Shown one piece after another: positions 20,894 through 49,868 of a stretch of DNA of 64,000 nt (within the stretch, counting starts at the first letter, position 1; the number at the start of each line of letters is the position of its first letter). The notes beneath the pieces are model-generated. The model made no database searches, had not been told where the DNA came from, and worked only from the letters and a program-made list of their open reading frames with translations. The translations under genes were made by a program, and so were the position numbers. Source of the stretch: Escherichia phage GADS24; sequence record OQ703618.1; one strand, 5' to 3'.

Positions 20894-21106
20894 CTATTTT
20901 AAACTTTTGCGAAATTTGCGTTTTTCTTGACGAATCTGTCGTTTAGTCGGACGTACAGCAAATTTAACGAAGTCCACTTTGCCATGTGGAAACTTTTCAG
21001 ATGCTTCACAGTCCATCATTAGTTCCCATCCTTCCAGAATAAGAGCTTTCCATTGTGTAGTTGATGCAAATTCGTATGTTGATGGTTTAAACACAGTTGA
21101 ATACAT
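20894..21106 (-). CDS. small protein with basic RPTKRQ C-terminal tail (family member)
   Basis: C-terminal VRPTKRQIRQEKRK shared with 48609..48788 and 49213..49383. Confidence 0.4.
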   Translation of the reverse strand: MYSTVFKPSTYEFASTTQWKALILEGWELMMDCEASEKFPHGKVDFVKFAVRPTKRQIRQEKRKFRKSLK

Positions 21107-21107
21107 A

Positions 21108-21299
21108 TTATCCTCTGAAATCAGCTTCAAAAACTTTCTCGTCATTAACAAATGCTTTAACTAATGCTTTGTTCACTTCAGCAAGTTGTACCGTAACCCA
21201 CTCGATTTCTTCGCGATCACCTGATAACATGATATCTTTAGTGAACATCTCACCACTTTTAAACCAACCAATAAAAGTAACTTTAGTTAATTTGCTCAT
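21108..21299 (-). CDS. dmd: Dmd antitoxin (discriminator of mRNA degradation)
   Basis: ~63 aa; GWFK...MFTK...AEVNKALVKAF recognised from T4 Dmd. Confidence 0.65.
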   Translation of the reverse strand: MSKLTKVTFIGWFKSGEMFTKDIMLSGDREEIEWVTVQLAEVNKALVKAFVNDEKVFEADFRG

Positions 21300-21639: not shown

Positions 21640-21668
21640 ATAATAACACAACTACTGGAGAAGTAAAC
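21640..21668 (-). promoter_or_regulatory. T4-type early promoter (-35 GTTTAC, -10 TATTAT) flanked by 10-bp inverted repeat ccagtagttg/caactactgg
   Basis: Hexamers 17 bp apart; arm pairs with SD region. Confidence 0.55.
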
Positions 21669-28852: not shown

Positions 28853-29239
28853 TTATAGATTCGGTTTATATGATTTAAATGTTTCGAATTCGCCTTTATT
28901 CATAAGAGCTTTGAATTCGTCGGGACGCATAGCTTTGTCGTCGATAATCCAATCATATACTGGTTTATGTGTTAGCAAATTATGGTACTTCAAGCCAATG
29001 TTTGCCAAGTTCTGAATAAGACTTGGGAGAATGTCAATTGCTATACGACCAGGACCTACTGACTTCATACCGCGAGCAGTGTAAAGCGTTATGGTATGCC
29101 CTGCATCATACAGGGCATTAATGGCAGACACCATTTCGACGTCTGGTTTGAAGTTCACGTAATCACGATTGTTATTCCACTCTGTTATACAATCATCGAC
29201 ATCAAAACAAAGATTAAGCATGTTTTCTACACGGTGCAT
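28853..29239 (-). CDS. HAD-like phosphatase (small)
   Basis: FDVDDC motif (DxD) near N-terminus; start overlaps upstream stop (TAATG). Confidence 0.45.
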   Translation of the reverse strand: MHRVENMLNLCFDVDDCITEWNNNRDYVNFKPDVEMVSAINALYDAGHTITLYTARGMKSVGPGRIAIDILPSLIQNLANIGLKYHNLLTHKPVYDWIIDDKAMRPDEFKALMNKGEFETFKSYKPNL

Positions 29240-30924
29240 TAGATTCGTTCCCATTGATGAGTGATATCGCCACCGATTGGACGATAGGAAACACCAGTTT
29301 CTTTATCAGTTAGTACCCATTTACCAGGATTTTTTGTAATCAGAGTAGCCGTTACAGGTTCTGCCATGTCATAACTAATAGAGCCGTCCTGAAGTACACG
29401 GCCCATGTTACGTAATTGCTTAGTCAGAAGTTCCATACCTTTATAATATGCGGCTACCGCTTTAAGTGGATTATTCTTGAAATAACCACCTAATGCAATC
29501 CAGATAATTGCTACAGCCAAATGATGATACTCGTTAAATGAACTCATCTTTCCATATTTGTAAACTAATGGATTGATGTTAATAGTCACATTACAAGTTG
29601 TTTCATCAATAGTAAACTGTCCCCAGGTCGGATTAGCGTTGAATTCATCATAACCTGAAACAGCATAAAGCACTTTAGCTTCATCGTACAATTTTGGCCC
29701 GTAAATCTTGGTTTCGCCAAAATATCCACGAGGGTCGATAAACTTGACTTCGCCGTTATCAGTAATCATAGTATTACTGAAGTTCGGGTCACCGTGAATA
29801 ACAGAGTACTGTCCCTGAGAACGGTTATGATAACGAATAAGGTGTTCTAAAGCTTGTTTCAGCATTGGCTTCAGACGCCCAATCTTAGTGTAGTTCACAT
29901 GTGTGATTTTACCAAATGAATCAATCAATGGTTGAATACTTTCACAACGATCAATAACTTTCGTATAGAATTCTTTAGTGAAATCACGACGAACAGTTTC
30001 AGGACTTACAAAATAAGTGTCTGTGCTGAATTTCAGTGCATCTAAAATTGCATCAACAATTTGTGGACGAGCAAGACTCGATTTAGATTTAATATATTCA
30101 AATGCCGGCTTACCTTTAATGCGTTCCATTTCAAAGTTATTTTCATTAACAGAAACTAACTGAGGAACTGAATCTGATTTCACTTTAAGATACCATGAAA
30201 TCTCATCTTTCTGAAGAGCTCGTCCCTGTTCGGTTAATGCGAATTTAGTTACAGTTTCTTCACCAATTTCAACTGCATTAAAACTACGATTAAGTTCACG
30301 AACTTCATGAGCTTTTTCAAGTTTAGGCATATCACCTAAATCAATTAGATTCATAAGCTCTGATTTATTGAATGCGCCGCTGTAAAGGAATTCTACGAAA
30401 TCACGTCCTTTGCAGTATTCATGAATTTCCTCATCAGTAGAACCCATATAGAATTCCCAGTCTTTGAATTGATAAATTCCTACAACATTACCACCTGTTG
30501 AACCTACGTTAGTGATATTTTCACCGTCGAAATTATATCGACATTCGTCACCCTTAACATAGATTGCGTTAACATTCCAAGACCATGAACCAAAATCAGG
30601 AATAATATCACACCAGTTAACAATTACATTATGGCCGTCTAAATCTTTGTGTAATTTAGCAAGAGCATAAGCGGAACCATATGCTTCATCAACTGTACGA
30701 ATAGTCACATTGAACCCTTCTTGCTCACAATAAGCTCGAACAGTTTCAGCAAATTTTGAATGAACTACTACAATAATTTCATCTGCGCCAAGGTCAGAAT
30801 AAATTGTATACAAATTGCTCAGAATAGTGTCTTGTTTATAGTTAACAAGCACCTTAGGAATATGATGCGTTATTGGATACAAACGAGTTGCCAGTCCAGC
30901 ACCAAGAATAACAGCTTTTTTCAT
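29239..30924 (-). CDS. bifunctional sugar-1-phosphate nucleotidyltransferase / APH-like sugar kinase
   Basis: N-term GAGLATRLYPITHHIPKVL (G-x-G-T-R NTase); C-term HGDPNFSN and IDPRG (Brenner kinase motifs). Confidence 0.7.
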   Translation of the reverse strand: MKKAVILGAGLATRLYPITHHIPKVLVNYKQDTILSNLYTIYSDLGADEIIVVVHSKFAETVRAYCEQEGFNVTIRTVDEAYGSAYALAKLHKDLDGHNVIVNWCDIIPDFGSWSWNVNAIYVKGDECRYNFDGENITNVGSTGGNVVGIYQFKDWEFYMGSTDEEIHEYCKGRDFVEFLYSGAFNKSELMNLIDLGDMPKLEKAHEVRELNRSFNAVEIGEETVTKFALTEQGRALQKDEISWYLKVKSDSVPQLVSVNENNFEMERIKGKPAFEYIKSKSSLARPQIVDAILDALKFSTDTYFVSPETVRRDFTKEFYTKVIDRCESIQPLIDSFGKITHVNYTKIGRLKPMLKQALEHLIRYHNRSQGQYSVIHGDPNFSNTMITDNGEVKFIDPRGYFGETKIYGPKLYDEAKVLYAVSGYDEFNANPTWGQFTIDETTCNVTININPLVYKYGKMSSFNEYHHLAVAIIWIALGGYFKNNPLKAVAAYYKGMELLTKQLRNMGRVLQDGSISYDMAEPVTATLITKNPGKWVLTDKETGVSYRPIGGDITHQWERI

Positions 30925-41922: not shown

Positions 41923-42132
41923 TTATCTCATTAAATTAAAATAAAAACGTCCATCCTCTTCAATACAGAACTCGTACTCAACCGGAGTCCCATTTATTGA
42001 AAATGACACGTCATGTGGGTTCAAAGGGTCGATGTCAAAATTAATTTTAAATTCACGACCCAACAGTTTTACCAAATAAGGGATTGCTTCGTCAAAAGGT
42101 TCTTCTAAGTAGTTAGAGATGTCAATTGTCAT
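41923..42132 (-). CDS. hypothetical protein
   Basis: Internal start chosen; 5' extension overlaps gp55. Confidence 0.35.
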
Positions 42133-42679
42133 CCTCATATAAAAAATCCAAACTAGGCGAATCGCTAACAACTTCCTTCTTTTCAGCCCCAGGAGCTTTA
42201 TAAGCGGATTCTTCATAATGCGTCATTTTATCGTAGATGTCTTGAATAAACGTTTCATCTACCAACGCTACCATATCATCGTCATGACTGTCGTAGACAT
42301 TATGAACGAAGTAACTATATTTCTTTGCAACTTCCTTACGTTCTTTTTTGATACGTTGGACAAAAGCATTAAAACAAGCTCGAGTTATGTATGCATGTGG
42401 GTTATTGTACTTAGTTTCGTCGAAATTATGAAGTCCCTTAATAGAGGCTTCAATCCCATCTGCAATCATCTCTTGCTTCCAAGACTGGGTATATCCTGAA
42501 AAGTTGAAACGTTTGGACAGGCCTTCGGCGATAAGCATAATTGCTAAACCGATGGTATCATTCTGACGAATAATTTTGTTTGGGTCTTTATTATTTAAGA
42601 GCTCCTTTTTCCACTCGATTATAGCGGCGAGAAGCTCTTTATTATTCACATAGTTATTTTTAGGTTTTTGTTCAGTCAT
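42122..42679 (-). CDS. 55: late sigma factor gp55
   Basis: 185 aa; T4 gp55-like. Confidence 0.85.
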
Positions 42680-46285: not shown

Positions 46286-48099
46286 TGGTGTTTAACCCTA
46301 TGCATGATTTCTTTATTTTTGCCTAGATTAAATCCGCGTTCGTTCGGATTTCCCAAATAACCACAAGTTCTTCTTATTGTGTTCATCTTTTTAGGATCAG
46401 TTTCTCCACAAATAGAACAAACAAATCCATTTTCGGTAGGAGTCATTTCATGGGTACTTCCACACGTAAAACATTTATCTACTGGCATATTAACACCAAA
46501 ATAATCTAAATGTTGCGCAGCATAATCCCAGACAGCCTCAAGACCTTTTAAGTTATTTTTCATATCAGGAAGTTCAACATAAGAAATGTGACCGCCTGTC
46601 GCAATGAAATGATATGGTGCTTCGCGAGAAATCTTTTCAAACGGAGTGATATTTTCTTCTACTGAAACATGGAAACTATTAGTGTACCAGCCTTTATCAG
46701 TAACATCTTTTACACTTCCATATTTTTTGGTATCAAGTTTACAGAAGCGATAACAAAGGTTTTCAGCAGGAGTAGAATACAAGCTAAAAGCAAAACCGGT
46801 TCTTTCGGTCCACTGCTTAAGACGAGCATTCATTTTAGTTAAAATTTCTTGCCCAATATCACGTCCGACAAGAATATTCAATTCGTGAATTCCAATGTAT
46901 CCCAAAGACACTGAACTTCTGCCGTTTTTAAATAACTCAATTATATCGTCATCAGGTTTAAGACGAACCCCGAATGCACCTTCTTGGTAAAGAATAGGAG
47001 CAACAGTTGCTTTAACACCCTTTAAAGAACTAATTCTACACATCAAGGCTTCAAAACATAAATCCATTCGTTCATTAAATAGCTCAACAAATTTCTGTTC
47101 ATTGAACTGTGTTCCAATATAAGAATCTAGTGCAATACGAGGAAGATTCAGTGTTACAACACCAAGATTATTACGTCCATCAAGAATTTCATTACCAGTC
47201 GAATCTTTCCATACGCCCAAGAAACTACGGCAACCCATTGGAGAAACAGGAATAGATGAACCAGTGATAGCTTTATTGTTCTTAGCTGAAATAATATCAG
47301 GATACATTCTTTTGCTTGCACACTCTAGAGCAAGCTGCTTAATATCATAGTTCGGGTCGTCTTTATAAAGATTGACACCTTCTTCAACGAACATAACAAG
47401 TTTAGGGAAAATAGGAGTTATTCCATCACGACCAAGGCCTTTAATGCGGTTTTTAAGAATTGCCTTCTGAATAATTCGTTCAGTCCAGTCAGTTCCAGTA
47501 CCAAATGTAATTGTTACAAAAGGCGTTTGTCCGTTTGAACTAAAGAGAGTATTTACTTCATATTCATAAGCTTGGAATGCATCGTATACGTCTTTTTCTG
47601 TTTTAGATTGGGCATAATTCAACGCATCAGCGATTTGCCATTTTTCTGCATCCTCAATATGTTTTGCATAGGTGCGTTTAACATAAGGAGAAAGTACTTT
47701 ATCTACATTAGCAAAAGTCGTTCCGCCGTACTGATGTGAAGCAACCTGTGCGGTAATTTGTGCCATAATTGCAGTAGCAACACCAATCGATTTAGGCGTT
47801 TCAATTTGAGCATTGCCGAGCTTAAATCCGTTTTCAAGCATCCCCTTTAAATCGACTAAACAACAATTAGTAAACGGAAGAGCAGGGGAATAATCAATAT
47901 CATGGAAATGAATAATTCCGCTTTCATGCGCTTTCATAATAAAAGACGGGACCATATTTTTGGCAATGTGCTTAGACACAATACCAGCCATAAGGTCCCG
48001 TTGAGTTGGAAAAACACGAGAATCTTTATTAGCATTCTCGTTCAAAAGATCTTTATTAGTTTTATGAATTAATCCTTCAATTTCTTTTTCAATTTTCAT
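46282..48099 (-). CDS. nrdD: anaerobic ribonucleoside-triphosphate reductase NrdD
   Basis: 605 aa, uninterrupted; glycyl radical motif RRTCGY; C-terminal Zn ribbon. Confidence 0.9.
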   Translation of the reverse strand: MKIEKEIEGLIHKTNKDLLNENANKDSRVFPTQRDLMAGIVSKHIAKNMVPSFIMKAHESGIIHFHDIDYSPALPFTNCCLVDLKGMLENGFKLGNAQIETPKSIGVATAIMAQITAQVASHQYGGTTFANVDKVLSPYVKRTYAKHIEDAEKWQIADALNYAQSKTEKDVYDAFQAYEYEVNTLFSSNGQTPFVTITFGTGTDWTERIIQKAILKNRIKGLGRDGITPIFPKLVMFVEEGVNLYKDDPNYDIKQLALECASKRMYPDIISAKNNKAITGSSIPVSPMGCRSFLGVWKDSTGNEILDGRNNLGVVTLNLPRIALDSYIGTQFNEQKFVELFNERMDLCFEALMCRISSLKGVKATVAPILYQEGAFGVRLKPDDDIIELFKNGRSSVSLGYIGIHELNILVGRDIGQEILTKMNARLKQWTERTGFAFSLYSTPAENLCYRFCKLDTKKYGSVKDVTDKGWYTNSFHVSVEENITPFEKISREAPYHFIATGGHISYVELPDMKNNLKGLEAVWDYAAQHLDYFGVNMPVDKCFTCGSTHEMTPTENGFVCSICGETDPKKMNTIRRTCGYLGNPNERGFNLGKNKEIMHRVKHQ

Positions 48100-48569
48100 T
48101 TTAAACTCTTTCTAAGCTGCTTTTTGAATGAAGCTATTAATTGTGTTTTGGTATCAGATTCATTATATTCAAATCCTCTTTGAAGCATCTCAGCCACCAT
48201 TTCCTCTTTACCTAGTCTTGAGAACTCTTTAGTTTTGTCTGGAACAAAATTAGGATGGATATTATTATCAGAATAATCTTGTTTCAAATAAGCGAGAAGA
48301 GCTTCAAGCCATTCGAGGTAGTCGACATCACGGCCTTTAAGACCAGAACGGTTGAACTTATGCTTCATTTGGCCTTCTGCTGCGTTGCACAGATTACAGA
48401 GTAACCCACGAACTCTACCTGCTTTTGGCCCGTTTAATTCGTGGTCGTGGTCAAGATGGTTACCTTGAACATCAGGGTCTAATTCACGGTGGCAAATAGG
48501 ACACTTACCATTCTGTGCATCATAAAATTTTTGTTTTTCTTCTTTATATTTTGCGCCTGATAATAACAT
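48096..48569 (-). CDS. 49: endonuclease VII (gp49) Holliday junction resolvase
   Basis: 157 aa; near-identical blocks to T4 endo VII. Confidence 0.9.
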   Translation of the reverse strand: MLLSGAKYKEEKQKFYDAQNGKCPICHRELDPDVQGNHLDHDHELNGPKAGRVRGLLCNLCNAAEGQMKHKFNRSGLKGRDVDYLEWLEALLAYLKQDYSDNNIHPNFVPDKTKEFSRLGKEEMVAEMLQRGFEYNESDTKTQLIASFKKQLRKSLK

Positions 48570-48608: not shown

Positions 48609-48788
48609 TTAGTAAACGTTATAAAAGTCTCGATGAAAACGTTTATATTGACGAATCATTTTCTTAGTAGGACGTGTTACTGAAATAATTGAAGTAGTCA
48701 TAGTCGGATTGTTTGGAGCGCCAGTCATAACAAATTTCCAGGATTTTTGTCCATTTTTTCTTTCACCATAAAATAATTCAGTTTTCAT
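48609..48788 (-). CDS. small protein with basic RPTKK C-terminal tail (family member)
   Basis: 59 aa hand-translated; paralog of 49213..49383. Confidence 0.4.
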   Translation of the reverse strand: MKTELFYGERKNGQKSWKFVMTGAPNNPTMTTSIISVTRPTKKMIRQYKRFHRDFYNVY

Positions 48789-48797
48789 AATAAACCT

Positions 48798-49211
48798 TTA
48801 ACTTAAACGTCTTTCTAAATATTCAATGTATTCCGCTGCGGCTTGCATCAGATTACCTTCATAACCATCATTATTTTCTTGGGCGGCTAATTTAGCTAAA
48901 GCATAAGAAATACGTTCACCTTCGAATTCGCCAAGTCCACCATCACAAACTACTTGGTCAATTTCTTCGAGTTCATCTATTGAATGGGATTCCCAGAAGC
49001 ACCAAAGAGAAGTATCACGGTCATAGATGCAAAGTTTCTCACCTGTGTTCAACATCACTTCGATAATGCCATGGTCACCATAACCATCTTCGGTAGTAGT
49101 ACCAATTACCTTGATGATCGTATCTTTCTTTAATTCAGGAAACTTGTCTTGTAGTTCTTCGTCTTCTTTAACAATCTTGAACCATTTACCGCGAGTTTCA
49201 GAAATATTCAT
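48798..49211 (-). CDS. hypothetical acidic protein
   Basis: Start at MNISETRG. Confidence 0.45.
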   Translation of the reverse strand: MNISETRGKWFKIVKEDEELQDKFPELKKDTIIKVIGTTTEDGYGDHGIIEVMLNTGEKLCIYDRDTSLWCFWESHSIDELEEIDQVVCDGGLGEFEGERISYALAKLAAQENNDGYEGNLMQAAAEYIEYLERRLS

Positions 49212-49212
49212 A

Positions 49213-49383
49213 TCAATATCCTCTATAAAAGTTACGATGAGAACGTTTAGCTTTGCGAAGCTGACGTTTAGTAGGACGAACTGTAAATGGTTGTCCAGAG
49301 AAAAAATTCGGATCGGTTTTAATAAGCAAATACCAATCATGCTCGCCATTTTTTAATAAACGGTACAATAATTTAACTTGCAT
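49213..49383 (-). CDS. small protein with basic RPTKRQ C-terminal tail (family member)
   Basis: Shares LxxKNGxxxW and VRPTKRQ with 48609..48788. Confidence 0.4.
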   Translation of the reverse strand: MQVKLLYRLLKNGEHDWYLLIKTDPNFFSGQPFTVRPTKRQLRKAKRSHRNFYRGY

Positions 49384-49511
49384 AATAATCTCTTCCCATT
49401 TCCATATCAATTAATTCATTTATTGAAGGTTCATCATAACATGGTTCTTCGTCGTTGTAAACCGTTTCGACGTCTGGCTCGACAGTCTCCCATCGAGCAG
49501 AATACCACGGT

Positions 49512-49868
49512 TTAACCCCGGAGTTTATTGAGCTCTTCATAATCAATCCAGGATTCTAGCCCTGATGGCAGGTCACATTCAATGTTCCACAGAAGCTCTT
49601 CAATGGCTTGCAGGCGATTATATTCTTCAATGGTAATGGTAACCATTGGTGCAACCGGTTCTGCCTTTTTAACCATCATATCGTTCATCAGGACGTAAAG
49701 GTCATCACGAACGACAGTGTCGTTCCAACCCCATGATTTGGCTTCGTAAGCTAATGATGAAGGGAGCACATTTAAAACTTCAATAATAGTTGGAGCATCA
49801 GGACCAAGTTCATTGGCACAAACTTCGTATACATCTTGGAAATCTTTAAGATTTAATGAATATGTCAT
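49512..49868 (-). CDS. hypothetical protein
   Basis: 118-aa ORF. Confidence 0.45.
   Translation of the reverse strand: MTYSLNLKDFQDVYEVCANELGPDAPTIIEVLNVLPSSLAYEAKSWGWNDTVVRDDLYVLMNDMMVKKAEPVAPMVTITIEEYNRLQAIEELLWNIECDLPSGLESWIDYEELNKLRG

Follow-up and report, generated by a model that had tools for sequence, protein, structure and literature searches.

The stretch of DNA analysed here, 64,000 nucleotides of Escherichia phage GADS24 (sequence record OQ703618.1; the window in what follows), carries on its minus strand three small open reading frames (ORFs) that end in nearly the same basic tail. A first-pass annotation of the sequence had grouped them by this tail, and all three were recovered with the positions and translations that it had described. 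The first of them (copy 1) can be identified as tifA, the gene of a phage protein that inhibits the type III toxin ToxN and binds RNA, whereas the other two (copies 2 and 3) lie on either side of pin, which encodes an inhibitor of the host Lon protease. All three are almost certainly paralogs within the TifA/DUF7279 family. Both regions are ~98% identical to Escherichia phage RB69 and its relatives (megablast), and by this similarity the window is assigned to an RB69-like T4-type phage (Mosigvirus, Straboviridae). The counterparts in the RB69 record are gp61.4 (AAP75940) for copy 1, RB69ORF087c for copy 2 and RB69ORF089c for copy 3.

The relationship between the three proteins is far beyond chance. 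Each of them exceeds the gathering cut-off of the Pfam family DUF7279 (PF23945; 24.5 bits), copy 1 with 72.1 bits (expectation value E 3.5e-20), copy 2 with 58.1 bits (8.5e-16), and copy 3 with 53.8 bits (1.8e-14). In PHROGs, copy 1 is assigned to phrog_2375 and copies 2 and 3 to phrog_3272 (E 2.3e-30 and 1.7e-26), with weaker cross-matches; a search of NCBIfam gave no match. Pairwise BLASTP links copies 2 and 3 at E 3.8e-12, copies 1 and 3 at E 2.7e-7, and copies 1 and 2 at E 7.2e-5. When 11 short forms of the family, to which copies 2 and 3 belong, were compared as a profile with 18 long forms of the TifA type (hhalign), the two aligned over columns 1-56 with 98.1% probability (E 9.6e-14) and a single 12-column gap, located at the long-form loop. 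A multiple alignment had been proposed in the first-pass annotation as a check, and in an alignment of 13 sequences the similarity runs from the first residue through to the tail, so that the homology is full-length and not of the tail alone, even though the N-terminal part of copies 2 and 3 is only ~30% identical to TifA. The N-terminal block which had been noticed in copies 2 and 3 is also real, and reads Y-x-x-(R/L)-K-N-G-(Q/E)-x-x-W. No fourth member was found in the window, either by a motif scan or by a hidden Markov model (HMM) scan of all six-frame ORFs (E<=1).

The tails read VRPTKRQIRQEKRKFRKSLK in copy 1, TRPTKKMIRQYKRFHRDFYNVY in copy 2, and VRPTKRQLRKAKRSHRNFYRGY in copy 3, and the residues invariant in the three are R-P-T-K-x-x-x-R-x-x-K-R-x-x-R. 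The Pro-Thr cap and the first basic cluster are RPTKRQIR, RPTKKMIR, and RPTKRQLR, respectively. Across the family, P, T, and R59 are invariant in the 18 long forms, and R-P-T-K...R...K-R in the 11 short forms. The equivalents of TifA residues K55, R56, and R59 are K42, K43, and R46 in copy 2 and K39, R40, and R43 in copy 3. The net charge of the tail is +9 over 19 residues in copy 1, +6 in copy 2, and +9 in copy 3, and the isoelectric points (pI) of copies 2 and 3 are 10.4-10.8.

The protein of copy 1 is 100% identical to TifA of RB69, and its role as a ToxN inhibitor and RNA-binding protein can therefore be taken from publications on the identical sequence. Amplification of dmd-61.4 is the route by which T4 evades toxIN, a toxin-antitoxin defence of type III, and gene 61.4 was renamed tifA, for ToxN inhibitory factor A (Srikant, Guegler and Laub, eLife 2022, PMC9391042). 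The gene acts as protein, for deletion of the start codon inactivates it while a version recoded at 55 nucleotides is still active, and TifA co-immunoprecipitates with ToxN (PMC9391042). Among the homologs tested, TifA of RB69 was the most potent, and of the T-even phages it is RB69 that toxIN restricts least (PMC9391042). TifA is predicted to be L-shaped, with a three-stranded beta-sheet on a C-terminal helix and a protruding loop of ~20 residues; the helix is studded with basic residues and begins with a conserved P53-T54 cap (Guegler et al., NAR 2023, PMC10853763). Synthetic TifA of RB69 binds RNAs of 15-45 nucleotides with dissociation constants (KD) of 2.3-0.36 uM, and shows no evident sequence specificity among unrelated RNAs; the P53A T54A and the K55A R56A R59A mutants have lost their RNA binding together with ToxN inhibition (PMC10853763). 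ToxN and TifA together form a large ribonucleoprotein, and the RNA enriched in it is 16S rRNA (PMC10853763). The suggestion in the first-pass annotation that the tail could be a nucleic-acid-binding or ribosome-binding peptide thus agrees with what has been published for copy 1. It had missed that copy 1 is the anti-ToxIN factor TifA and that the tail is not a free peptide but an alpha-helix packed on a beta-sheet.

All structures considered here are AlphaFold2 (AF2) predictions. The model of copy 1 places beta-strands at residues 2-6, 27-33, and 43-49 and a helix at 55-69 (mean predicted local distance difference test score, pLDDT, 76.6), in agreement with the published L-shaped description. 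Its helix is predicted with a pLDDT of about 90, and within the loop region 7-26 the value is below 50 at residues 11-15 and 17-23. Copy 2 is modelled with a pLDDT of 90.1 as strands 2-9, 15-24, and 27-36 and a helix 42-58, that is, in the same beta-beta-beta-alpha order with tight turns in place of both long connections; copy 3 is covered by its alignment to copy 2. The ~20-residue loop between beta1 and beta2, which is characteristic of TifA in the strict sense and present in copy 1, is replaced in copies 2 and 3 by a 5-residue turn (R/L-K-N-G-Q/E). This loop was placed at the ToxN active site by the published model, and the published alignment treats its region as variable rather than family-defining (PMC10853763). 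No relative was found in the PDB, and a Foldseek search against viral models (BFVD) returned only uncharacterised proteins of 54-64 residues from T4-like phages (Merlin, S16, CBH8) at E>=0.015.

The genes around pin follow one another closely in the direction of transcription, in the order 49.1, copy 3, pin, copy 2, and gene 49 (Table 1). The end of 49.1 overlaps the start of copy 3 by 11 nucleotides, and the two are apparently translationally coupled. The stop codon of copy 3 lies 1 nucleotide from the ATG of pin, and pin is separated from copy 2 by 9 nucleotides which hold a Shine-Dalgarno-like AAAGG. It had been claimed that one copy sits next to dmd, which holds for copy 1, as Pfam identifies its neighbour as dmd, and that the other two flank a gene downstream of endonuclease VII. 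They do flank a single gene, pin; its location had been misread, since pin has higher plus-strand coordinates than gene 49 and, with transcription on the minus strand, therefore lies upstream of endonuclease VII.

Table 1. Positions of the TifA-family genes, their C-terminal segments and neighbouring features in the window.
Feature	Position	Strand	Remarks
Copy 1, tifA (gene 61.4)	20894..21106	-	70 residues, ATG start; Pfam DUF7279, phrog_2375
TifA R52-K70, the 'tail': P53 T54 cap and basic alpha-helix	20897..20953	-	
dmd, antitoxin against RnlA/LsoA	21108..21299	-	Pfam Dmd E 6.2e-22; RB69 annotation
RB69ORF040c, ORF of 105 residues	21296-21613	-	between the early-promoter-like site and dmd
Sigma-70/early-promoter-like site, TTTACT-16-TATTAT with TG	21640..21667	-	upstream of ORF040c-dmd-tifA; consensus scan, not above shuffle expectation
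Gene 49, endonuclease VII	48096..48569	-	Pfam Endonuclease_7 and Endonuc-dimeris; downstream neighbour of copy 2
Copy 2 (RB69ORF087c), short TifA-family paralog	48609..48788	-	59 residues, ATG start; between pin and gene 49
Copy 2 R39-Y59: P40 T41 cap and basic helix	48612..48674	-	alignments, AF2 helix
pin (PinA), host Lon protease inhibitor	48798..49211	-	137 residues; Pfam Inhibitor_I24 PF10465 E 3.4e-47; RB69 annotation
Copy 3, intact version of RB69ORF089c	49213..49383	-	56 residues, ATG start; between pin and 49.1
Copy 3 R36-Y56: P37 T38 cap and basic helix	49216..49278	-	alignments
Gene 49.1	49373..49540	-	RB69 annotation; no Pfam match; upstream neighbour of copy 3

Copies 2 and 3 are genes under purifying selection, with ratios of nonsynonymous to synonymous divergence (dN/dS) of about 0.08-0.2. 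The 24 loci that were fetched gave 16 distinct coding sequences of the copy 2 type and 11 of the copy 3 type. For the former, the median dN/dS was 0.16 (Nei-Gojobori, 108 pairs with dS >0.05, among them comparisons with Tequatrovirus and Gaprivervirus in which dS is saturated). Copy 3 and its most diverged Mosigvirus ortholog, that of NicPhage, differ with a dS of 0.62 and a dN of 0.047 (omega 0.076). The exact proteins or their 90%-identity cluster-mates are present on dozens to hundreds of contigs, and some of them are named 'DUF7279 family protein' by the NCBI pipeline.

Two local irregularities were seen among these genes. In the window and in RB69, copy 2 is separated from its counterpart in JN02, DCP548, phiC120, and VIPECOMC06 by a dS of 0.32-0.58, although the surrounding 2.2 kb is ~97% identical overall; allelic divergence or mosaic replacement is here confined to a local patch. 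In the RB69 record (AY303349), an A-run near the 5' end of copy 3 has one extra A (A7 versus A6), on account of which RB69ORF089c is annotated at only 38 residues; the copy in the window is intact. Either an error of sequencing or a genuine frameshift in the homopolymer could account for the extra A, which lies within 2714-2925 of the fetched RB69 locus.

The family is small and, as far as it was seen, phage-restricted. Against a database of about 50,700 phage records, tblastn matched copy 1 in 639 records (68 at >=95% identity), copy 2 in 355, and copy 3 in 411 (145 at >=80% identity), and those matches of copy 3 at >=80% identity were Mosigvirus in every record inspected and in every row listed for the spread. 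An HMM search of 1.84 billion cluster representatives gave 24 matches at E<=1e-3, and a word-indexed protein search gave 18 proteins. Three longer proteins each showed several partial matches to the profile, namely P0020 (1685 residues; profile positions 11-34), P0035 (195 residues; 32-51), and P0037 (655 residues; 6-25), and these are probably repeat or low-complexity artefacts.

Among the fetched loci, a short copy adjoins pin or gene 49 in Mosigvirus, Tequatrovirus, and Gaprivervirus, and in all those from the latter two genera it stands between pin and gene 49. JS98 (Dhakavirus), one of the tblastn matches of copy 2, has a short-form match at 42020-42196 in addition to its own long TifA, which means that both subfamilies coexist across genera. 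The arrangement copy 3, pin, copy 2 is shared by the window, JN02, DCP548, phiC120, VIPECOMC06, and RB69 (copy 3 frameshifted), and NicPhage and LF82-35 have copy 3 and pin without copy 2. In NicPhage, at 28965-29525 of the fetched locus, and in LF82-35, copy 2 is cleanly gone, the pin stop codon abutting the late-promoter sequence TATAAATA upstream of gene 49.

Shf125875, PTK, and phiE142 carry a single hybrid gene which joins the body of copy 3 to the ending of copy 2 (...NFYNVY or ...NFYNIY), and pin is absent from Shf125875 and PTK, where the hybrid spans 29398-29568 and 1101-1271 of the fetched loci, respectively. The crossover lies within the homologous tail sequence CATCG(A/T)(A/G)ACTTTTATA, which indicates that recombination between copies 2 and 3 deleted pin and that the paralogous tails are also recombination substrates. 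This remodelling resembles the microhomology-driven rearrangements of T4 laboratory evolution (PMC9391042). T4 itself (NC_000866) has no intact short copy. Comparison of positions 1898-2383 of its fetched locus with 1340-1725 of that of UFV09 shows that a clean deletion took out the pin stop codon and about 42 short-gene codons and joined pin in frame to the 15 codons at the end of the short gene, so that the C-terminus of T4 Pin, ...SFSDRMIQQYKRLHQMFYNT (also given as ...SDRMIQQYKRLHQMFYNT), is a remnant of the basic helix. In one further fetched locus (L008), an intact short copy comes after a pin with this fused tail. The tifA slot of Shf125875 downstream of dmd (1440-1580) is occupied instead by an unrelated acidic, Cys-rich ORF of 46 residues (MEEVECVVCGCSVYEDEAVFDAYDNATCLDCDRESEEHAYEHEDEE). 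This slot, together with 68 records for TifA against ~145 for copy 3, implies that tifA itself is variable among Mosigviruses.

Several features of the two neighbourhoods deserve a place beside these genes. The dmd gene is directly upstream of tifA, a single base separating its stop codon from the tifA ATG, and for T4 the promoter of dmd-tifA is an early one, located upstream of dmd (PMC9391042); copy 1 shares this dmd-linked position in an early operon, and copies 2 and 3 do not. RB69ORF040c has no Pfam match and falls in the region which the TifA authors term the 'anti-TA (toxin-antitoxin) island'. Under the matched 1.3-kb region of the HX01 RefSeq record, 'ADP-ribosyl transferase' occurs among the product names. 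Scans of the window for promoters and terminators gave nothing above shuffle expectation and are usable as pointers only. Directly after the stop codon of copy 2 there is a T4-type late promoter, TATAAATA, at 48606-48599 (-). A hairpin, CCCTTA...TAAGGG, follows at 48598-48576 (-), just upstream of the gene 49 ATG, and this late promoter and hairpin sequence ahead of gene 49 is kept in T4, UFV09, and Mosigviruses. In T4, Barth et al. (1988) reportedly found that a hairpin at this place hides the ribosome-binding site of gene 49 in long early transcripts, and that it is disrupted in the late ones. The ending of endonuclease VII overlaps the start of nrdD (ATGA). Endonuclease VII and TifA also share the C-terminus ...RKSLK (48096-48125 and 20894-20920, both on the minus strand), their DNA endings being AAGAGTTTAAAATGA and AAAAGTTTAAAATAG, which is probably a 5-residue coincidence.

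Taken together, the best explanation is very probably that the three ORFs are paralogs from a family of small RNA-binding proteins of T4-like phages, copy 1 being TifA itself. TifA is made early and binds the ToxN freed from toxI and simultaneously, by its basic helix, RNA (PMC10853763). This traps ToxN in an inactive state on RNA that is abundant, for the most part 16S rRNA, and the phage transcripts are spared (PMC10853763). Copies 2 and 3 would anchor to RNA in the same manner through their own Pro-Thr-capped basic helix, and such binding is probable, as they keep the cap and the counterparts of K55, R56, and R59.

Their differing sheet surface would then tether or mask a host factor that is not a ToxN of the E. 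coli type, of which the most plausible kind is a further defence nuclease or toxin that targets RNA. A different target is suggested because the beta1-beta2 loop is missing from copies 2 and 3. It is also suggested because the distant long homologs of TifA from other genera neutralise none of the tested ToxN proteins, which places specificity outside the helix, and because single ToxN substitutions that escape TifA of RB69 restore defence against the whole RB69 phage (PMC10853763). Copies 2 and 3 would, with pin, be part of a second counter-defence cluster. The neighbourhood fits such a role, for pin blocks Lon; likewise, gp49.2 from the same region of T-even phages inhibits OLD (PMC13096335), and nrdC.5 of T-even phages counters Dsr1 (PMC9391042). 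A counter-defence role of copies 2 and 3 against a target other than ToxN is nevertheless a tentative proposal, a serious possibility that stops somewhat short of being probable. A more specific version is rather unlikely. In it, the short proteins beside pin would be an ancient subfamily of their own, made up of inhibitors that tether to RNA as TifA does, and would act with Pin as a second anti-toxin-antitoxin module; their minimal beta-sheet would recognise a different RNA-targeting defence effector of the host, for instance TenpN or CptN among the type III toxins, or a type II ribonuclease toxin released by Lon.

Some observations weigh against a TifA-like role of copies 2 and 3 as just described. 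TifA also binds single-stranded and double-stranded DNA in vitro, which leaves room for a DNA-related role, and the published neutralisation panel (Table S2) consists of long forms only, those of T2, T4, T6, RB69, EcS1, vB_EcoM_005, VR7, JS98, PM2, and CB4 (PMC10853763). Fold searches returned only generic beta-beta-beta-alpha matches. Moreover, the short copies are often lost or damaged, as seen in the T4 remnant, in NicPhage without copy 2, in the hybrid of Shf125875 and PTK, and in the RB69 frameshift, and hence are dispensable, at least on laboratory hosts.

It may be asked whether copies 2 and 3 have a specific defence target at all. They might be general RNA-binding or ribosome-binding regulators, such as RNA chaperones or translation modulators, a role to which their strongly basic helix, with the high pI, would be suited, as would the unspecific RNA binding of TifA and its association with 16S rRNA (PMC10853763); the minimal forms also leave little surface for a protein partner in the AF2 model of copy 2. 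This is improbable, however, as the genes are present or absent between near-identical phages and the alleles of copy 2 diverge (dS 0.3-0.6) inside flanks that are ~97% identical, a pattern typical of accessory arms-race genes and not of core regulators. The sheet residues, furthermore, are conserved within each subfamily in the alignment.

Slightly less probable again is that copies 2 and 3 serve as additional inhibitors of ToxN. The dosage of TifA activity would then be raised by the genome itself, as a natural equivalent of what T4 achieves by tifA amplification when it evolves under pressure from toxIN. Copies 2 and 3 share with TifA its family and the RNA-binding helix, which ToxN inhibition needs, T4 does escape toxIN by raising the copy number of tifA (PMC9391042), and extra inhibitors, if true, would help explain that RB69 is so little affected by toxIN. 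Yet copies 2 and 3 lack the loop of ~20 residues which is predicted to extend to the active site of ToxN, and their N-terminal part has diverged far from TifA, while long-form homologs more similar to TifA neutralise no ToxN (PMC10853763). The restored defence of TifA-escape ToxN against RB69 shows in addition that its other copies do not compensate, with the reservation that copy 3 in the RB69 record may be frameshifted.

That copies 2 and 3 are decaying, functionless duplicates of tifA is very improbable. The recurrent loss, fusion, and frameshift described above (the T4 Pin fusion, NicPhage, the deletions in Shf125875 and PTK, and RB69 copy 3) would be expected of such genes, but the selection analysis largely refutes it, as dN/dS remains at 0.08-0.2 at dS of up to about 2. 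The intact frame and conserved position across >=3 genera, the tight coupling to neighbours, the Shine-Dalgarno sequences, and the confident AF2 model speak against decay as well.

The first-pass annotation had itself named a shared regulatory DNA element as the finding that would undo its proposal. In the 16-codon tail core, the identical residues are encoded by different codons in 4/10, 6/11, and 3/9 cases in the three pairwise comparisons (33-55%); between copies 1 and 3, the third codon positions are identical in 8/16 cases against 12/16 for the first and 13/16 for the second, and in the other two pairs the codon positions are about equal in identity. The sequences just past the tails are the Shine-Dalgarno of pin in copy 3, the late promoter TATAAATA in copy 2, and an early-promoter-like GTTTAC...TACTAT in copy 1. 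That the tails are alike because of a DNA or RNA regulatory element over the gene 3' ends is thus hardly credible and was rejected, for although short matches exist (by blastn, at best 23 nucleotides at 87% and 26 at 88%) and the 3' ends of copies 2 and 3 run into such signals, the matches are weak, the codons and the flanking signals differ between the copies, the motif persists in orthologs whose synonymous divergence is saturated, and for copy 1 the idea was already refuted by the recoded tifA and its start-codon deletion (PMC9391042) and by the amino-acid substitutions in the tail that abolish function (PMC10853763).

Among known systems, TifA (gp61.4 of T4 and RB69) is the closest to copies 2 and 3, with which it shares the Pfam family, the beta-beta-beta-alpha topology, the Pro-Thr cap, and the equivalents of K55, R56, and R59. 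They differ from it in their length (56-59 residues versus 70-85), in having neither the beta1-beta2 loop nor any C-terminal extension, in their position beside pin and gene 49 instead of dmd, and in belonging to phrog_3272 and not to phrog_2375. The database entries of the family (DUF7279 and PHROGs 2375, 3272, 12748, 8921, and 15176) carry no function, and no connection between DUF7279 and TifA was found in the Pfam description or in the papers searched.

Dmd (T4 gene 61.5) is comparable as another small phage protein of the early phase which neutralises an endoribonuclease toxin of the host; it is encoded directly upstream of tifA. It belongs, however, to another Pfam family and has no sequence or fold relationship to TifA. 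According to Otsuka and Yonesaki, it reportedly acts by direct protein-protein inhibition without an RNA-binding helix. Binders with arginine-rich motifs and the HIV-1 Vif-APOBEC3 pair are alike in that a short basic helix confers RNA affinity of low specificity and the RNA is a scaffold that holds an antiviral enzyme inactive, and this analogy was drawn by the TifA authors themselves (PMC10853763). These show no homology to the TifA family, in which the helix is packed on a small beta-sheet and starts with the invariant Pro-Thr cap. Similarly, ToxI occupies the same target surface of ToxN as TifA, for the ToxN escape mutations overlap the toxI pocket, but it is a 36-nucleotide RNA repeat and not a protein, and the binding of the two is mutually exclusive (PMC10853763).

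TifA, Pfam DUF7279, and the RNA-binding basic helix are already known. The short form, too, is already within the published TifA alignment, since the 56-residue copy-3-type protein of phage phiE142 is present in Fig. 5C of PMC10853763. What is new is modest, and consists of three family copies in one genome, a short subfamily linked to pin, and the remnant fused to T4 Pin. The two TifA papers (PMC9391042, PMC10853763) contain neither the word 'paralog' nor a mention of multiple copies per genome, and no open-access paper or preprint was found on DUF7279, RB69ORF087c or RB69ORF089c.

None of the residues which RNA binding is known to require is missing from the short form, and the loop predicted to face ToxN has been lost. 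At 56-59 residues, such proteins are cheap to synthesise and would be direct candidates for screens of inhibitors of other RNase-type defences. The gain, loss, and hybridisation around pin offer a clear natural example of the microhomology-driven remodelling seen in the laboratory evolution of T4, and the helix remnant on T4 Pin may matter for the interpretation of the Pin C-terminus. If the short pin-flanking proteins do form a subfamily of RNA-tethering inhibitors, the Pro-Thr-capped basic helix would be an RNA anchor which phages can reuse, pairing it with specificity surfaces that are exchanged.

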